Assembly (NCBI RefSeq): GCF_045037415.1
Contig: NZ_CP173438.1
Direction: 5' to 3' (one strand)
Origin: Escherichia coli
GTDB lineage: Bacteria; Pseudomonadota; Gammaproteobacteria; Enterobacterales; Enterobacteriaceae
Length of the DNA: 64,000 nt
The notes under the pieces: model-generated
The model's input: only the letters and a program-made list of their open reading frames with translations
The model's database searches: none
Told to the model about the DNA's origin: nothing
In this document: in pieces, positions 7,434 to 28,685 of the stretch
How the letters are laid out: each line of letters begins with the position of its first letter
How positions within the stretch are numbered: the stretch's first letter is position 1
Program-made: the position numbers and the translations under genes

Positions 7434-8072
7434 ATGAAAAATGTACTGATTCTTGGTGCTGGCGGTCAGATAGCCCGCCATGTGATTAATCAACTGGCAG
7501 ATAAACAAACCATTAAACAAACTTTATTTGCCCGTCAGCCAGCAAAAATCCACAAACCCTATCCAACTAATAGCAAGATTATTATGGGGGATGTACTGAA
7601 TCATGCAGCACTGAAGCAGGCCATGCAGGGACAGGATGTTGTGTATGCCAACCTTACGGGGGAAGATTTAGATATTCAGGCAAATTCAGTGATCGCTGCG
7701 ATGAAAGCCTGTGATGTTAAACGTCTGATCTTTGTTCTTTCCCTCGGTATTTATGATGAAGTTCCAGGAAAATTTGGCGAATGGAATAATGCAGTTATTG
7801 GTGAACCCCTAAAACCATTCCGCAGGGCTGCGGATGCAATTGAGGCTTCTGGACTGGAATATACAATTCTTCGCCCTGCCTGGCTGACTGATGAAGATAT
7901 TATTGATTATGAGCTTACCTCACGCAATGAACCATTCAAAGGTACGATCGTATCACGTAAGAGTGTCGCAGCATTAATCACAGATATCATCGATAAACCT
8001 GAGAAACACATTGGTGAGAATATAGGCATCAATCAACCCGGGACTGATGGTGATAAGCCCTTCTTCATGTAA
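7434..8072 (+). CDS. NAD(P)-binding NmrA/SDR-like oxidoreductase (ymjC-like, apparently intact)
   Basis: 212-aa ORF; N-terminal Rossmann motif VLILGAGGQIARHV. Confidence 0.75.
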   Translation: MKNVLILGAGGQIARHVINQLADKQTIKQTLFARQPAKIHKPYPTNSKIIMGDVLNHAALKQAMQGQDVVYANLTGEDLDIQANSVIAAMKACDVKRLIFVLSLGIYDEVPGKFGEWNNAVIGEPLKPFRRAADAIEASGLEYTILRPAWLTDEDIIDYELTSRNEPFKGTIVSRKSVAALITDIIDKPEKHIGENIGINQPGTDGDKPFFM

Positions 8073-8090
8073 ATCAATTATATAGCTACC

Positions 8091-8117
8091 ATCGTACTGT
8101 ACTATGTGCAGTACGAT
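8091..8117 (+). terminator. Hairpin downstream of the ymjC-like gene
   Basis: ATCGTACTG / CAGTACGAT 9-bp inverted repeat followed by an AT-rich tract. Confidence 0.4.
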
Positions 8118-8236
8118 TTATTAAACTTATTAAGGTGAACTGATCAATCAGATGCGATTAACATGTGTAGAACCAGTAAGAATAAAATACGCCATGTATA
8201 TAACATTACGACAATTCTAATATCTGCACATCAATG

Positions 8237-12388: not shown

Positions 12389-13450
12389 TTATTTTTCGCT
12401 GGGCGTTTTGCCTTTTTGCAGAGTTTCTTTCACCTGACCGATAAGCTGACGACGGAAATCCCCGAGGCGTGGCTTGTCATCGTCAATCCACGGCAGCGGG
12501 CGGCAAAGCTCCATAGCTTTAATCCCGAGTCGTGCCGTCAGAAGTCCAGCACCAATCCCCTGAGCTGCCCGGGTAGACAAACGCGCAGCGAGATCTTGCG
12601 ACATCCAGTCCATCCCCACTTCGCGCACCAGTTCGCTGGCTCCGGCGAAAGCGATATTCAGCAATACCAGCTTAAACAGGCGCAAACGGCTGTAATATCC
12701 CAGTTCAATGCCATACAGCGTGGCGATGCGATTAATCAAACGCAGATTGCGCCAGGCGATAAACGCCATATCCACCAGCGCCAGTGGGCTAACGGCAATC
12801 ATTAACGTTGATTCCGCCGCTGAGCGGCTGATTTCGCGCCGCGCCTGGGCATCTAAAACTGGCTGGACCAGGTGAGCATACAAACTGACCACTTCACGAT
12901 CGTTCTGCGTTTCATGGATTGAGGCATACCAGCGCTGCAGCGCCGGATGTGACTGATCGATGCCCGCCTGCTGCGCCAGTTTTTCGCAGAATGCACGGCC
13001 TTTACCCGTGCCGTGACTGTGCAACAAATCGCGCGCTTCATCGCGTTCATGGGCGCGCTGTCGCAAGCGCCATAAGCGCCGCCACTCTGTTACCACAGAA
13101 CCTACGCCAGCGCCGATAATCAATGCCCCAGCGGCACATCCACCCAGCGCCACCCAGTCCTGGGTTTGCCAGGCGTTCATTGTCCACTGCACGCCCTGCC
13201 CGACAACGCTTGCGCCAAACAGAGCCAGCCCGCCCATCACCATTTTGCGCCACAGGCTGCGTTTCGGACGTAACGCTGCGTCCATCACCGCTTCAACTTG
13301 CCCCTCTTCTTCCTGTGCTTCGTCGAGCGTGGCCGGGGCAAAATTTTGCGCCTGATTTTCGTCAAAGGTCTGCTGCGCCCTGAATTTTGGATTCTGATCG
13401 ACCTCCAGTGGACCGTCGAAATCAATACGTGGTTTTAACGGTTCGGTCAT
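12389..13450 (-). CDS. ycjF: Inner-membrane protein YcjF (DUF697)
   Basis: 353-aa ORF; start overlaps the ycjX stop by 4 bp. Confidence 0.85.
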
Positions 13451-14999: not shown

Positions 15000-15998
15000 A
15001 TGTCCCCTACTATTTATGATATTGCCAGGGTTGCAGGCGTATCAAAATCCACCGTATCACGCGTGCTGAATAAGCAAACCAATATCTCCCCGGAAGCGCG
15101 CGAAAAAGTGTTACGGGCCATTGAAGAATTACAGTATCAACCAAACAAGCTGGCCCGCGCGCTGACCTCTTCGGGTTTTGATGCCATTATGGTGATTTCT
15201 ACTCGTTCGACCAAAACTACGGCGGGTAATCCATTTTTCTCTGAAGTTTTGCATGCCATCACCGCCAAAGCAGAAGAAGAAGGTTTCGACGTGATATTAC
15301 AAACGTCGCACAATCCGGCAGAAGATCTGCAAAAATGCGAAAGCAAAATTAAGCAGAAAATGATTAAAGGCATTATTATGCTAAGTTCGCCTGCCGATGA
15401 ATCCTTCTTTGCACAACTCGACAAATACGAGATCCCGGTGGTGGTGATCGGTAAAGTTGAAGGTCAATACAGCCATGTTTATTCCGTCGATACCGATAAT
15501 TATGGCGACAGTATTGCGCTGACCAATGCGTTAATTGAAAGCGGGCATAAGAATATAGCCTGCCTGCATGCGCCGCTTGATGTACAAGTTTCAGTGGATC
15601 GGGTAAATGGTTATAAGCAAAGTCTGGCTACGCATAATATTGCAGTGCGTGATGAATGGATTGTTGACGGCGGTTATACCCATGAGACAGCATTAAAAGC
15701 AGCACGGGAATTATTAAGCCAGTCACCGTTGCCTGAGGCAGTGTTTGCTACTGACAGCCTGAAATTAATGAGTATTTATCGTGCGGCGGCAGAGAAAAAC
15801 ATTGCTATTCCGCAGCAGTTAGCGGTGGTGGGTTATAGTAATGAAACGCTGTCGTTTATATTAACGCCTGCACCAGGCGGCATCGATGTTCCGACGCAGG
15901 AGTTAGGTCAACAAAGCTGCGAGTTATTATTCCAGTTAATTGCCGGAAAACCGTCACCACAAAATATTACCGTTGCTACGCATATGTCGTTGAAATAA
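15000..15998 (+). CDS. ycjW: LacI-family transcriptional repressor YcjW
   Basis: 332-aa ORF; N-terminal LacI HTH ([21 protein letters not shown]) and periplasmic-binding-protein-like sensor domain. Confidence 0.9.
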
Positions 15999-16003
15999 AT
16001 GTA

Positions 16004-16035
16004 TGCCGGATTTGGCGCTCGCCCCGCATCCGGCA
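16004..16035. repeat. REP-like palindromic unit between convergent ycjW and ompG (probably also a terminator)
   Basis: TGCCGGAT...ATCCGGCA inverted repeat, GC-rich, resembling REP/PU elements. Confidence 0.5.
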
Positions 16036-16048
16036 ATTTAGCACATTA

Positions 16049-16954
16049 TCAGAACGAGTAATTCACCCCAACACCCGCATAATGGAATTTATCGCTGTCG
16101 CCTTCGTCGTGATCCTGCCACTCAAACGCGTATTCCAGCGAAACGGAAAGACCATTCTGGAAATCATAACCGTAAAATAAACCCACACGGTTAAAATCAT
16201 GGCCTTCACGTTCAATATCATCCTGCCAGTCCCAGTTACTCCAGCGATCCAGCCCAATGCGCGTATACGGCGTCACCGAGTGGTTGCCGAGCGTCAGCGG
16301 CAAATAGGCGCGAATTTCTTGCGTGGAAAACTCACCGTTATTGCGGCTATCATCCATATTGAAACCACGCTCGAGATAATAGTTCACTCGCAAGGCAACC
16401 GTTTCGTTGAAGGTATATTGCAGACCCGTTTCCGTTTCGACACGGGTATCAGCATAACCGGTCGTATTCAGATCGTTGGCAAATTTATACATCGACAGCC
16501 AACCGTTGAAACGTAAATCGTCAGTCAGTTTCACATCCCAGTCTGGCGCGATTTTCCAGCGCTGCATATTTGCCGTGTCTTTACCCGGTTCATCAACGTA
16601 GTGATAACCATAGTTACGGAAACCACCAGTCAGACCGAGACTGAAATCATCGCTTTCGAGGAACTGATAATGTACCTCCAGCTCCGGGCGATCAAACCAC
16701 GTTCCACGTTTACCCGCGCTATAATCTACCGGCCCTTCCTGATAATAGGCCAGAGAAATTCTCCACGGCCCGTTGGCGGCATTAAAATAGACAGAAGGCT
16801 CTGCCAGCCCATCCATATCTTCGACATAACCCTCGACGTTTTCTATTTCGTACATCGCGCCGATATTAAAGTGCCAGTTGTTCTTTTCCTCGGCCTGTGC
16901 GCAGGCCATTCCCGCACACATCACCAGTGCGGTACAGGGTAATAACTTTTTCAT
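16049..16954 (-). CDS. ompG: Outer membrane porin OmpG
   Basis: ORF 16049..17005; start placed at MKKLLPCTALVMCAGMACA (signal peptide) giving 301 aa; C-terminal aromatic residue. Confidence 0.9.
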   Translation of the reverse strand: MKKLLPCTALVMCAGMACAQAEEKNNWHFNIGAMYEIENVEGYVEDMDGLAEPSVYFNAANGPWRISLAYYQEGPVDYSAGKRGTWFDRPELEVHYQFLESDDFSLGLTGGFRNYGYHYVDEPGKDTANMQRWKIAPDWDVKLTDDLRFNGWLSMYKFANDLNTTGYADTRVETETGLQYTFNETVALRVNYYLERGFNMDDSRNNGEFSTQEIRAYLPLTLGNHSVTPYTRIGLDRWSNWDWQDDIEREGHDFNRVGLFYGYDFQNGLSVSLEYAFEWQDHDEGDSDKFHYAGVGVNYSF

Positions 16955-16998: not shown

Positions 16999-18081
16999 TT
17001 AGCAAATTGCTATTTCCGTTTCTGCATCAAAGAAATGACATTTAGTCATATCAAAATGAATAGTGATATTTTCTCCTGCATGATAATCATTTAACGCACC
17101 AGCACGGACCACTAACTCGTGCCCCCCAACCGTGGTGTAGAGCATAAATTCCGCACCGGTTAATTCCGCCACGCTAATTTTGGCGGAAATGTTATTTTCT
17201 TCTTGCGCATCCGGATGAATATCCTCCGGGCGTATTCCCATCACAATGGGTTTATGTAAACTTTCCTGCGTTTTCAGAACCGCTAATTTCTCTTCGGGAA
17301 TGGTTAATTTAAGTGTTTCCGTAACGAATTTATCGCCATCGATCGTGCCGCGAATAAAATTCATTGCTGGTGACCCAATAAATCCGGCAACAAACATATT
17401 CGCCGGTTGGTTATAGACCGTTTTCGGCGCACCGACCTGCTGAACAATCCCATCCTTCATAATGACAATCCGCGTCGCCATGGTCATCGCTTCGGTCTGA
17501 TCGTGGGTCACGTAGATCATGGTGGTGTTCAGTTTCTGATGCAGCTTGCTGATCTCTGCGCGCATTTGCACACGCAGCTTGGCATCCAGGTTAGAGAGCG
17601 GCTCATCCATTAAAAACACGCCCGCTTCGCGCACAATCGCCCGCCCAAGCGCCACTCGCTGACGTTGCCCGCCGGAAAGCGCGCCCGGCTTGCGTTTCAG
17701 GTACTCACGCAGGCCGAGGATTTGCGCCGCCCAGTTAACCCGCTCATCAATCATCTCTTTGGCGATTTTTTGTATCTTCAGGCCAAACGCCATGTTGTCG
17801 TAGACCGTCATATGCGGATACAGCGCGTAGTTCTGGAACACCATCGCGATATTGCGTGCTTTGGCTGGAACGTCATTCATTCGTTTGCCGTCGATCAACA
17901 GCTCACCGCCGCTGATCTCCTCAAGCCCGGCAATCATACGCAGGGTGGTCGATTTACCGCAGCCCGACGGACCGACAAACACGATGAACTCTTTATCGGC
18001 AATCTCCAGGCTGAAGTCCTTCACCACATGCACCTGGTTATCGTAGATCTTTTGAATATGTTGTAACGAAAGCTGTGCCAT
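16999..18081 (-). CDS. ycjV: ABC transporter ATP-binding protein YcjV (MalK/UgpC-like), apparently intact
   Basis: 360-aa ORF; Walker A GPSGCGKST, signature LSGGQRQRV, Walker B FLMDEPLS and a C-terminal MalK-type regulatory domain. Confidence 0.9.
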   Translation of the reverse strand: MAQLSLQHIQKIYDNQVHVVKDFSLEIADKEFIVFVGPSGCGKSTTLRMIAGLEEISGGELLIDGKRMNDVPAKARNIAMVFQNYALYPHMTVYDNMAFGLKIQKIAKEMIDERVNWAAQILGLREYLKRKPGALSGGQRQRVALGRAIVREAGVFLMDEPLSNLDAKLRVQMRAEISKLHQKLNTTMIYVTHDQTEAMTMATRIVIMKDGIVQQVGAPKTVYNQPANMFVAGFIGSPAMNFIRGTIDGDKFVTETLKLTIPEEKLAVLKTQESLHKPIVMGIRPEDIHPDAQEENNISAKISVAELTGAEFMLYTTVGGHELVVRAGALNDYHAGENITIHFDMTKCHFFDAETEIAIC

Positions 18082-23968: not shown

Positions 23969-24811
23969 TTAGCCCTTCACGCCACCAGCGGTCAAACCAC
24001 TCTTAATAAAACGTTCCGAAAGCGCATACATAATCACTACCGGTAGTGCGGTCACCAGCGAGGCCGCCATCATCCGTCCCCAGATGTAATCAGGCGTACT
24101 GAACAGCGCGTTCAGGCCCACAGGTAAGGTGAAATTGCTGGCGCTGGAAAGGAAAATCGACGCAAACAGATAGTCGTTCCACGCCACCATAAAGCAGTAG
24201 ACGAATACGGATATCAGCCCGGACATTGCCAGGGGCACGGTGATACGGAAGATAATTTGCAGACGATTGAGGCCATCCATCATTGCCGCTTCTTCGATTT
24301 CATCGGGGATGGTGTCGAAGTAGCTTTTCAGCATAAACACGGCGGTAGGCAGAGTTTGCGTCACCATGGTGATAATCAGCGCCATCTCGGTGTCGTAAAT
24401 GCCAAGTGCGGTGATGATTTTGAACAGCGGCACCACCAGCAAAATGCCGGAGAACATGTACACCGTGTAAAAGCTGGCGTTGATGGTCATTCGCCCTTTA
24501 AAGCGCAGGCGGGAAAGCGCGTAAGCCCCAAGAATGCCGAGAAATACCGCCACCACGGATGAAACCACCGACACCACCATGCTGTTACGGAAGTAGTCGA
24601 CAAACGGGAAAATCACCGGATTAAAAATGTCGACGTAATGCTCCAGCGTCCACTGCTGTGGCAGCAACGTAGGATGCAGCGAGATCGCCTCTTTTGCGCT
24701 CTTGAACGAGGTCATCAGCATCACAAAAAATGGAAACAGCGTGATGATGAGAAACAGCGCCAGCCCGCAGTAAAAACCGATTCGACTGAGTGTGCGTTTA
24801 TTTGTTGCCAT
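23969..24811 (-). CDS. ycjP: ABC sugar transporter permease YcjP
   Basis: 280-aa ORF; multiple TM helices and MalG-like EAA loop region. Confidence 0.85.
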   Translation of the reverse strand: MATNKRTLSRIGFYCGLALFLIITLFPFFVMLMTSFKSAKEAISLHPTLLPQQWTLEHYVDIFNPVIFPFVDYFRNSMVVSVVSSVVAVFLGILGAYALSRLRFKGRMTINASFYTVYMFSGILLVVPLFKIITALGIYDTEMALIITMVTQTLPTAVFMLKSYFDTIPDEIEEAAMMDGLNRLQIIFRITVPLAMSGLISVFVYCFMVAWNDYLFASIFLSSASNFTLPVGLNALFSTPDYIWGRMMAASLVTALPVVIMYALSERFIKSGLTAGGVKG

Positions 24812-25679
24812 TGAGGTTCACCCGTTTCCTGGTCAGCAGAATGACAGCGAAAATAATGATGAAAAGCACCACCGAGATCGCCGCCGCTTTCCCTAAGTCA
24901 TTAAAGGCAAAGGCGGTTTTGTAGAGATAGACACCGAGAATATCGACCTTGGTCGTCAGCAGATAAACATCCGCGAACATGTAGAACATCCAGATAGTGC
25001 GCAGGGTCACCACCGTCGCCAGAACCGGCATAATCGCGGGCAGCGTGACGATGCGAAACCGTTGCCAGGCATTCGCGCCATCCATCTCTGCCGCTTCGTA
25101 CAGCGATTTGTCGATGGTCTGCAAAATCGCCAGAAACGAGATAAAGGCATACGGGAAGTAGCGCCAGATGGCGAACAGCACCACCAGCACAAAACTACTG
25201 CCCGGGTTATCGAACCACAGCGGCGCCTGCTCATAGAGATGCAGAAGATCGACGCCGAGGTAGTTCACAATGCCGTAGCCGTTGTTGAACATGTATTTCC
25301 AGGCGAACACCAGCGAAATAGACGGCGTTACGTAGGAAAGGATCACCAGCGAACGCGCGGTTTTGCGCAGGCGGAACTCGCGGTTGAAAAACATCGCCAC
25401 GGCCAGCCCGAGCACGGTGCTGCCCGCCACCACAAGCGCGGTATACCAGACCGTCATCCACAGCGAGTGCCAGAAACCAGGATCGGAGAGAATGCGCACA
25501 TAGTTACTCACCCCAACAAACGTTGACTCGATGTTGGGATTAAGCGGCAGACGTAAAAAACTGATTTCGATATTCGACACCATCGGCCACGCCACCAGAC
25601 CGCCCAGCAGTAATAAGCTGGGCGCGAGAAGCAACAGCGCAAAGGGCATATCGGAACGACCTGAAAAAAGCCTGTTCAT
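24798..25679 (-). CDS. ycjO: ABC sugar transporter permease YcjO
   Basis: 293-aa ORF; MalF-like permease; 14-bp overlap with ycjP. Confidence 0.85.
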   Translation of the reverse strand: MNRLFSGRSDMPFALLLLAPSLLLLGGLVAWPMVSNIEISFLRLPLNPNIESTFVGVSNYVRILSDPGFWHSLWMTVWYTALVVAGSTVLGLAVAMFFNREFRLRKTARSLVILSYVTPSISLVFAWKYMFNNGYGIVNYLGVDLLHLYEQAPLWFDNPGSSFVLVVLFAIWRYFPYAFISFLAILQTIDKSLYEAAEMDGANAWQRFRIVTLPAIMPVLATVVTLRTIWMFYMFADVYLLTTKVDILGVYLYKTAFAFNDLGKAAAISVVLFIIIFAVILLTRKRVNLNGNK

Positions 25680-25699: not shown

Positions 25700-26992
25700 T
25701 TAGCGCTGTTCGACCAACTCATCCAGCTTTTTCTGGCTCGCTTGCAGCGTGCCAGGGAGGTCGGCTTTACCCACGGTGACGTTATGCACCATTGAACTCA
25801 CCACACCAGACCCCGTCACATCACCCATGCGGGTAAAGTTTTTATCCCCTACTGCGCCAAAGACCTGAATATTTGGCAATTCGCTGATTAGCTGATTCGG
25901 CAATTCTCCCAGCGCCTTAATAACGTCGTTGTCTTTCCAGGTGGCGGTAGTGACAACCGCTTTGTTCACCGGCAGCGCCGCGCCTGGTGACATCATCACC
26001 CAGTCGGCAATGTTGTCCGCCTGCTCCATAAAGGTGACAAATTTTTCAGCCGCTTCGGTCTCTTCAGTCTTTTGCCCGGCGGTAATGGTCAGCGAGGTCA
26101 ACATGCCGTAGACCGCAGAATTTTTCTCGGTTGGCACCACGAAACCAACGTTTTTCGGATCGCCTTCTTTAATCACAGCCGGAAGGATATAGGTGGAGTA
26201 AATCGCCATCGGCGCGGTGCCGTTCATAAAAGCGTCTTTCACTTCCATGATGTCGTTAGAACCTGGCATGGTGTTGGCAGCAAGGTTGCGGTAATAGGTC
26301 AGCGCCTGCATCATCTCTGGTGTATCAAGGGTGATTTTGCCTTCGGCGTTAAAGACGTTAGCCTGATTGGATAACGCAAACTGGGAGAAAGACTGTTCCG
26401 TCAACACGCTTTCTGCTGTAGGCAGCGCAATACCGTATTTTTTATTCGCCGGGTCATTCAGTTTCTGTGCAACGTCCAGCAATTGCTGCCAGTTTTTTGG
26501 CTCCTCCAGCCCAGCTTTTGCCAGCACATCTTTGCGATACCAGATCCCGCCAATCCATGCGCTGACAGGAACACCGGTCCAGGCGCTGCCATCTTCGGTG
26601 CGCACAATCCGCAGTACGCCATCGTAGAACGCGCCTTCACCGACGTTGCTGATGACCGTGGCAACCGCTTTACGATCGATAAGCTGCTCTTTGTCCATCA
26701 CTTTGGCGTAGTCATGGCTGGTTTCGATCACTTCCGGCAGCGAACCGCTACGTGAAAGGGTAATGACTTTGGTGTTATAGGCGTCTTCTTCCACGGGCAC
26801 TTGTTTTACGGTGATACCTGGGTTTTCTTTTTCAAAACGGGCAATCAATTTGCTGATGACGGCCTGGCGCTCCTGCTCCACCGAAGAATGCATAAATTCG
26901 ATGGATACATTATTTTTATTTTCTTCTTTACAGCCTGAAATCAGGGCGCAGGAAACCAGTGCTGATAACAGCACGATTTTTGATTTAATCAT
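25700..26992 (-). CDS. ycjN: Periplasmic sugar-binding protein YcjN (ABC transporter)
   Basis: 430-aa ORF; lipoprotein-like signal (LISGC); SBP family 1. Confidence 0.85.
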   Translation of the reverse strand: MIKSKIVLLSALVSCALISGCKEENKNNVSIEFMHSSVEQERQAVISKLIARFEKENPGITVKQVPVEEDAYNTKVITLSRSGSLPEVIETSHDYAKVMDKEQLIDRKAVATVISNVGEGAFYDGVLRIVRTEDGSAWTGVPVSAWIGGIWYRKDVLAKAGLEEPKNWQQLLDVAQKLNDPANKKYGIALPTAESVLTEQSFSQFALSNQANVFNAEGKITLDTPEMMQALTYYRNLAANTMPGSNDIMEVKDAFMNGTAPMAIYSTYILPAVIKEGDPKNVGFVVPTEKNSAVYGMLTSLTITAGQKTEETEAAEKFVTFMEQADNIADWVMMSPGAALPVNKAVVTTATWKDNDVIKALGELPNQLISELPNIQVFGAVGDKNFTRMGDVTGSGVVSSMVHNVTVGKADLPGTLQASQKKLDELVEQR

Positions 26993-27005: not shown

Positions 27006-28685
27006 TTATTTAATCCACATAACCTGCCAGGGATGCAGTGTTATTTCATTACCCAATATATCAACTTCACTAATCAGATCCCGACCGTGCAGGTCAGTAA
27101 TATTTATATGCTGAATATTTTCGCTGACATTAAACAATCCCGTCAGGCAATCGCCATCCGCATTGCTTCTTTGAATTCGCATTACAAATGAATTAATTGC
27201 ATCGATGGTGAAATTATTATCCGGATGAAACTCTTTATGACTGCGACGAAGGGTAATTAAATGCGACAACTTATAATATACCGAATACCTTAATGTCGCT
27301 TTATTGTCCAGTTCTGTCGTTATCTCTTTACTAGAGTATTTTTTACGGTTAATCGCGCGATTATATCCAAGTTTTTCGACACCGGCGTAATCATTACGCG
27401 ACCCCAGAATGCTTTGAATATATATCGCTGGCACACCGGGGAAACTTAACAAAATCGCATGGGCGAGAATAAACCTGGCACACCGTTCTTCGTCGCTACA
27501 CTCACGGCGGCTCAACGCATCCATATAGGTGACATTCATTTCATAGGGGCTACGCGTACCGTCGGGATTATTTTTCCAGTTTACTAATGCCCCTTCCTGC
27601 TGTAACACCTCGACCAGCGCTAATATTTCGTTTTCGGGTAACAACCCCCGCAGTGGGTTAAGCCCGATGCCATCGTGAGAGGCAAGGAAGTTAAACCAGG
27701 TGGTGTTGCTGGAAGGTAGTGTCAGGTTTTGCGCCCACGCACAAAGTGCCTCAACGTTCTGTTTTTGCACCGCATGCAGCACCAGCGGCGGCAGCGAGAA
27801 CTGGTACACCATATGCGCTTCGTCATCGCCTTCGCCAAAGTAAGCAATGTTGTCTTTATGCGGAACATTGGTCTCGGTAATGATCACTGTGCCTGGCGCG
27901 ACGTTATCAATAATCGAACGTAACAGTTTGATAATCAGATGTGTTTTTTCCAGATGGATGCAGTTTGTTCCCGGCTCTTTCCACATAAAGCCAACGGCAT
28001 CCAGACGGACATACTCTGCGCCCTTTTCCAGGTAGCACAGCAATACATCCACCATCGCCAGCAACACTTCAGGGCTACGGTAATTGAGGTCAATTTGATC
28101 GTCGCTAAAGGTGGTCCATAAATGACGCGTTGAATGATCGCGCATCTGGAATGGCGTTAATAACGGTAACGCACGCGGGCGAGTGACGGCGCTGAGATCG
28201 GTTTTCGGATCAACGGTAATAAAAAAATCTTCAAAACCTGGCTGCTGTTGTAAATAGTTTTTAAACCATTCACTTTTTGCCGACATATGGTTGCAGACAA
28301 AATCAAACATTAAATGGCTGCATTCACCGAGTTGCTGAATATCCTGCCACTCCCCCGCTTCACTGGCGACCTGATGATAATCAATTACCGAAAATCCATC
28401 ATCAGATGACCATGGATAAAAAGGTAATAAATGAACATGTGAAAAAATTCTTTGCAGCCATTGAGGGTAAAACTGATTAAATGTGGGTAGTGGCTTTAAA
28501 TCATTACTGTGAAATTGATCGGCATAGGTAATTAACACGACATCACTTTCATCCCAGTGTTTTTTACGTCGCTGTGTAATTAATCGTTTCGCACTCTCAA
28601 GACGCGTTACAAGTTTCTGTAAATGAGTCGCGGTAAATGTTCCACCGTAGATTTCGTCCAGGTAATCCGTAATTTTCTGTTGCAT
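27006..28685 (-). CDS. ycjM: GH13 sucrose-phosphorylase-like enzyme YcjM (reported glucosylglycerate phosphorylase)
   Basis: ORF 27006..28712; start placed at MQQKITDYL (ATG at 28683-28685) giving 559 aa. Confidence 0.85.
   Translation of the reverse strand: MQQKITDYLDEIYGGTFTATHLQKLVTRLESAKRLITQRRKKHWDESDVVLITYADQFHSNDLKPLPTFNQFYPQWLQRIFSHVHLLPFYPWSSDDGFSVIDYHQVASEAGEWQDIQQLGECSHLMFDFVCNHMSAKSEWFKNYLQQQPGFEDFFITVDPKTDLSAVTRPRALPLLTPFQMRDHSTRHLWTTFSDDQIDLNYRSPEVLLAMVDVLLCYLEKGAEYVRLDAVGFMWKEPGTNCIHLEKTHLIIKLLRSIIDNVAPGTVIITETNVPHKDNIAYFGEGDDEAHMVYQFSLPPLVLHAVQKQNVEALCAWAQNLTLPSSNTTWFNFLASHDGIGLNPLRGLLPENEILALVEVLQQEGALVNWKNNPDGTRSPYEMNVTYMDALSRRECSDEERCARFILAHAILLSFPGVPAIYIQSILGSRNDYAGVEKLGYNRAINRKKYSSKEITTELDNKATLRYSVYYKLSHLITLRRSHKEFHPDNNFTIDAINSFVMRIQRSNADGDCLTGLFNVSENIQHINITDLHGRDLISEVDILGNEITLHPWQVMWIK

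Follow-up and report, generated by a model that had tools for sequence, protein, structure and literature searches.

The window, a 64,000-nucleotide stretch of Escherichia coli DNA, carries the gene ycjV on the minus strand between pgmB (ycjU) and ompG, as part of the ycjM-ompG/ycjW cluster, which is complete. This cluster opens with ycjM (27006-28685, minus strand), which encodes glucosylglycerate phosphorylase. It is followed on the same strand by ycjN (25700-26992), coding for a substrate-binding (lipo)protein of 430 aa with an SBP_bac_1 match, and by the genes of two permeases that both match BPD_transp_1, ycjO (24798-25679, 293 aa) and ycjP (23969-24811, 280 aa). The minus-strand segment 18095-23938 is occupied by ycjQ, ycjR, ycjS, ycjT (kojibiose phosphorylase) and pgmB/ycjU (beta-phosphoglucomutase), all with their K-12 lengths. 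On the other side of ycjV lies ompG (16049-16954, minus strand), the product of which is a monomeric porin of 301 aa recognized by Porin_OmpG. The gene of the LacI-family repressor YcjW (15000-15998, plus strand) is divergent from the cluster. The neighbouring ORFs from ycjM to ompG, as well as ycjW, have exactly the same lengths in the window as in K-12. The initial annotation had spoken of YcjNOP and kojibiose/glucoside genes encoded alongside ycjV, and this description holds: ycjN, ycjO, ycjP, the enzyme genes and ompG are all full length.

The minus-strand genes of the cluster are spaced by -14 to +44 nt. The ycjV gene begins 13 nt after pgmB, and ompG is located 44 nt downstream of ycjV. 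A promoter scan around ycjV yielded three sigma-70-like sites vs. 4.3 in shuffled sequences, i.e., no excess, and in the ycjV-ompG spacer the coding strand is free of terminator-like hairpins. Neither of these results points to a transcription unit internal to the cluster. YcjW is reported to repress the ycj cluster, which may not be expressed in laboratory conditions. As for the permeases, a strict EAA pattern matched YcjO (EAAEMDGA at residue 195) and not YcjP, so the loop is confirmed in one of the two. All parts of a binding-protein-dependent importer, along with a porin, are present and uninterrupted in the window.

Several differences between strains were seen in the surroundings of the cluster. 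The ompG-ycjW spacer (window 16001-16017) has 17 nt here vs. 77 nt in K-12 (L001 11064-11140), and the surplus K-12 sequence resembles REP/BIME palindromic units (GCCGGATGCGGCG ... GTAGGCCGGATAAG). At positions 7434-8072 (plus strand) the window has an intact ORF of 212 aa, annotated as an SDR family oxidoreductase in strain SK1144. K-12 is devoid of about 664 bp at this place (window 7569-8232) and retains a 138-bp remnant annotated as "NAD-dependent dehydratase, incomplete"; this is another case of a K-12 gene near ycjV that is deleted or reduced to a pseudogene. The ycjF gene is full length in the window (12389-13450, 353 aa). In SK1144 ycjF (L002 13632-14021) has a 672-bp in-frame deletion (window 12608-13279), flanked by about 15 bp of microhomology, that leaves a DUF697 protein of 129 aa.

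The ORF listing and the raw sequence agree that ycjV is uninterrupted and comprises exactly 360 codons at window positions 16999-18081. The start codon is ATG at 18081, preceded 8 nt upstream by an AGGA Shine-Dalgarno sequence, and the stop codon is TAA at 16999-17001. Pfam assigned three domains to the protein, ABC_tran (PF00005; residues 21-162, E=5.7e-32, 111.6 bits vs. a cutoff of 25), OB_MalK (residues 236-288, E=1.7e-14, 54.9 bits vs. a cutoff of 27) and TOBE_2 (residues 282-351, E=5e-10, 39.8 bits vs. a cutoff of 21), which jointly span residues 21-351. The latter two form the MalK-type C-terminal regulatory domain (17029-17376, minus strand). All six catalytic motifs of the ABC nucleotide-binding domain (NBD) are present: the Walker A motif, or P-loop, GPSGCGKS (residues 37-44; 17950-17973, minus strand), the Q-loop VFQ (residues 81-83), the ABC signature LSGGQ (residues 135-139; 17665-17679, minus strand), the Walker B motif VFLMDEP (residues 155-161; 17599-17619, minus strand), the D-loop SNLD that comes after it (residues 163-166), and the H-switch THD (residues 192-194; 17500-17508, minus strand).

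A search of PDB sequences aligned residues 1-359 end to end with solved ATPases of MalK-type sugar importers, MsmX, AlgS and Thermococcus litoralis MalK among them. The best solved relative is Bacillus subtilis MsmX (6yir, E=6e-147), a match well outside what chance would produce. The NCBIfam model NF008653 of the UgpC type gave 486.5 bits, above its cutoff of 432, although this is a subfamily model and passing its cutoff does not make YcjV equal to UgpC. The domains, the model score and the gene linkage classify YcjV as a predicted MalK/UgpC/MsmX-type ATPase of the CUT1 sugar importers. RefSeq annotates a sequence identical to that of the window as an intact CDS (WP_000068009.1). Nucleotide identity of ycjV to annotated E. 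coli loci with the same neighbours is 95.7-100%; the pgmB-ycjV-ompG synteny and this identity show that the ORF is ycjV. In these respects the initial annotation was accurate. It had read the gene as ycjV and its product as a full-length, uninterrupted, MalK-like ATPase of 360 aa with all nucleotide-binding motifs and a C-terminal regulatory domain; the minus strand is what it left unstated. It is thus highly likely that the ORF is the wild-type, intact ycjV of E. coli, encoding the nucleotide-binding subunit (MalK/UgpC/MsmX-type) of a CUT1-class ABC sugar importer.

The statement in the initial annotation that ycjV is annotated as a pseudogene in K-12 proved correct. In K-12 MG1655 (NZ_CP010439.1), the ycjV CDS has 1082 nt and is annotated as a "frameshifted" pseudogene, historically split into ycjV and ymjB. 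In metabolic-engineering papers, ycjV is routinely called a pseudogene and used as a neutral integration site. A global alignment of the window and K-12 genes, the check that had been proposed, revealed 46 substitutions and one gap, with 95.7% nucleotide identity over the full length; the two genes are therefore identical neither in length nor in sequence. The same alignment located the lesion. A homopolymer of six G (C6 on the plus strand) at window positions 17122-17127 (minus strand), i.e., CDS nt 955-960 in codons G319-G320, is reduced to G5 in K-12, and the one lost G is the sole length difference between the two genes. After the deletion the K-12 frame reads ...YTTVGGTS* and gives a product of 322 aa, which lacks the last 40 residues (321-360); residues 1-320 and every catalytic motif are spared. 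The deletion takes 31 of the about 70 residues matched by TOBE_2 (282-351), so that the domain is probably unable to fold. Past the lesion, the +2 frame of K-12 still encodes HELVVRAGALNDYHAGENITIHFDMTKCHFFDAETEIAIR, which is the window C-terminus bar the final residue. Moreover, restoring one G to K-12 ycjV reproduces the BL21 allele at every base, which identifies the K-12 lesion as a single, very recent event.

Megablast found the ycjV ORF in 5,001 of 5,426 complete E. coli genomes with an identity of 95.4-100%, and in these 5,001 genomes the gene is nearly always single-copy and chromosomal. A match is absent from the other 425 genomes, 7 matches are on plasmids, and genome DXMF6-3R keeps just the last 231 nt of ycjV, annotated as a "TOBE domain-containing protein". 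The state of the tract was determined with probes of 80 and 79 nt centred on it, for which any single difference lowers the identity below 99%. Of the 4995 genomes carrying the locus, 4377 match the G6 80-mer exactly, and 369, mostly laboratory derivatives of K-12, match the K-12 G5 version exactly; the remaining genomes match neither probe exactly and have SNPs near the tract. Among the G5 genomes listed, 58 of 60 are K-12 derivatives (e.g., MG1655, DH5alpha, DH1, C600, J53 and NCM3722). When the ranked matches were sampled at even intervals, 36 of the 39 full-length ones had 1083 nt, and the three with 1082 nt were K-12 strains. An intact CDS ("ABC transporter ATP-binding protein") is annotated in BL21, ATCC 25922, an O157:H7 strain and strain 1943. 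SK1144 and the window are 99.96-99.99% identical over 19 kb, and their ycjV genes are 100% identical. Pairwise dN/dS between ycjV alleles is 0.03-0.04 at dS 0.08-0.20, which indicates that the gene is under purifying selection. An intact ycjV is the norm of the species and K-12 is the exception; this state was already known from the annotation of thousands of genomes and from biochemical work on the protein, and the window strain is ordinary.

The G5 tract was also observed outside K-12, in 16 genomes of STEC, bovine, wild-bird and human isolates. They include STEC 2014C-3051, 08-00022, O22:H8 RM10809-3, EC6622, PEC1011 and FCI51, and eleven of the 16 are OkiPb bovine isolates that look clonal. 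The ycjV CDS is annotated as "frameshifted" in 2014C-3051 and 08-00022 (loci L003 and L004, CDS at 586-1667), and the 16 genomes have the G5 tract on an allele background other than that of K-12, with 21 differing sites in 2014C-3051. Individual assembly errors are unlikely to account for all 16, since these genomes come from several sources and projects. The simplest reading suggested by them is recurrent slippage at the G6 run. That the tract in codons 319-320 is a slippage hotspot, at which ycjV has been switched off independently in K-12 and at least one other lineage, is nevertheless a tentative proposal that we consider more doubtful than probable. Clonal descent among the OkiPb isolates, recombination at the 3' end or homopolymer assembly errors may also explain the non-K-12 G5 genomes; about 100 nt separate the tract from the first SNP on its upstream side that tells the alleles apart, which leaves room for such recombination. 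If the reading of the tract as a hotspot is true, the K-12 lesion could partly account for the persistent obscurity of the Ycj system, its substrate and its physiology, because the published transporter studies were done in K-12 and make no mention of its frameshift. In that case a one-base repair, or a strain with an intact allele, might expose a Ycj phenotype.

The partners of YcjV are probably YcjN as the binding lipoprotein and YcjO and YcjP as the permeases, all encoded in the same minus-strand gene string. By analogy with MalFGK2, two copies of YcjV would bind to YcjO and YcjP through the EAA loops of these permeases, and the dimer would close round two ATP molecules via Walker A/B, the Q-loop, LSGGQ and the H-switch. 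Hydrolysis of the ATP would then power the uptake of a glucoside handed over by YcjN, with OmpG as the likely outer-membrane passage for the sugar. The putative substrates are of the kojibiose, glucosylglycerate or guloside type. Once imported, the sugar would be processed by the adjacent YcjM, YcjQRS, YcjT and PgmB. We infer the pairing of YcjV with YcjNOP, the substrate and the loss of function by the K-12 truncation. MalK-type ATPases can be shared among importers, so gene neighbourhood is not proof of the pairing. The paper on the YcjN crystal structure names YcjV as the NBD of YcjNOP and does not mention the K-12 frameshift (PMC11543891), and the same is true of a 2025 paper on delta-ycjN in K-12 (PMC13053599). 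A thermal-shift screen of YcjN gave no ligand, kojibiose and glucose being included (PMC11543891). In the literature searched, no transport assay for YcjNOP-YcjV was found.

The contrast between this strain and K-12 drawn by the initial annotation has to be weighed against these data. One could suppose that the pseudogene is typical of E. coli and that the intact frame is peculiar to this strain, having arisen by reversion or representing a rare allele that still functions. This view derives only from a K-12-centred framing, K-12 being over-represented among the genomes and accounting for most of the 369 with G5. The G6/G5 counts, the sampled gene lengths, the intact annotations in BL21, ATCC 25922, O157:H7 and strain 1943, and the identity of K-12 plus one G to BL21 refute it, and we give it virtually no credence. 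The G6 frame is also ancestral, as it yields the C-terminus conserved in B. subtilis MsmX. Thus the K-12 copy is indeed annotated as a pseudogene, as the initial annotation stated, while the specialness that it implied for the window strain is reversed: the strain has an ordinary, functional-looking allele, which it shares with about nine in ten genomes of E. coli. The main live rival to a functional importer ATPase lost in K-12 is a frameshift devoid of physiological effect, either because the 322-aa product works or because YcjNOP borrows MalK or UgpC; the window strain would then gain nothing over K-12 from its intact ycjV. In the K-12 product the NBD is indeed complete, and about two thirds of the regulatory domain are preserved. 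Furthermore, MalK and UgpC were reportedly shown by Hekstra and Tommassen in 1993 to be exchangeable in E. coli. Related ATPases of the multitask MsmX type are interchangeable in some organisms (PMC7658222), and transport phenotypes have been reported for delta-ycjN in K-12 itself (PMC13053599). The swapping of NBDs is not general, however, as YcjV and MalK failed to replace MsmX (PMC7658222). The loss of 31 TOBE_2 residues probably prevents folding of the domain, and the whole-gene dN/dS shows that selection keeps the full-length protein. In addition, the MalK dimer is held together by its C-terminal domains, as seen in structures such as 1q12. On balance, we regard a frameshift without effect as unlikely.

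It is also conceivable that YcjV, like MsmX, MsmK and MsiK, is a multitask ATPase energizing several importers and is not dedicated to YcjNOP. Its closest solved relative is MsmX (492 bits vs. 332 bits for E. coli MalK in the PDB sequence search), and the YcjV-MsmX identity is given as 64% (PMC7658222). Against this, ycjV is not an orphan gene; it belongs to an operon-like string that also encodes a binding protein and permeases of its own. At the positions aligned with the MsmX signature D77, R104, E110 and K154, the window protein has N77, Q104, M110 and G154, and YcjV falls outside the MsmX/MsmK multitask type. The absence of the charged residues typical of multitask ATPases from YcjV has been pointed out by Leisico et al. 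2020, and the BL21 protein did not replace MsmX in msmX-null B. subtilis on arabinotriose or galactan (PMC7658222). A multitask role therefore appears quite improbable. The preferred reading remains that of an intact subunit of a dedicated importer. It follows for experimental work that studies of the ycj cluster in K-12 (YcjT, YcjQRS, YcjM, YcjN and OmpG) are carried out with a transporter ATPase that has lost its 40 C-terminal residues. K-12 is ill suited to work on the Ycj importer, the substrate of which is better sought with an intact allele or after a one-G repair.

The closest characterized counterpart of the window protein is BL21 YcjV (WP_000057985.1), which is encoded by the same gene in the same pgmB-ompG position and also has 360 aa. 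The two proteins share 354 of 360 residues and have identical motifs. The six substitutions between the window and BL21/K-12 proteins (S24N, E60D, I103M, M110V, A232S and C360R) are all located outside the catalytic motifs. At the nucleotide level, the window and BL21 genes differ at 46 positions (95.8% identity), being alleles of different phylogroups. Leisico et al. 2020 expressed BL21 YcjV in B. subtilis and purified it; the protein accumulates in soluble form and hydrolyses ATP (PMC7658222). ATPase activity has been measured only for this BL21 allele, and for the window allele, the product of which is 98.3% identical, it is predicted.

MsmX shares with YcjV the architecture of an NBD followed by OB/TOBE domains over residues 1-359. 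The msmX gene is an orphan and its product powers several importers; ycjV, by contrast, lies in a cluster with the genes of its own permeases. E. coli MalK (1q12 and, in MalFGK2, 2r6g) has the same fold class and motif set, with an alignment that reaches residue 352. To our knowledge, the regulatory partners of MalK, MalT and EIIAGlc, have no known counterpart for YcjV. The NCBIfam MalK equivalog model NF008233 gives YcjV 427.2 bits, below its cutoff of 568. As judged from sequence, YcjV is a paralogue of MalK, not an orthologue.
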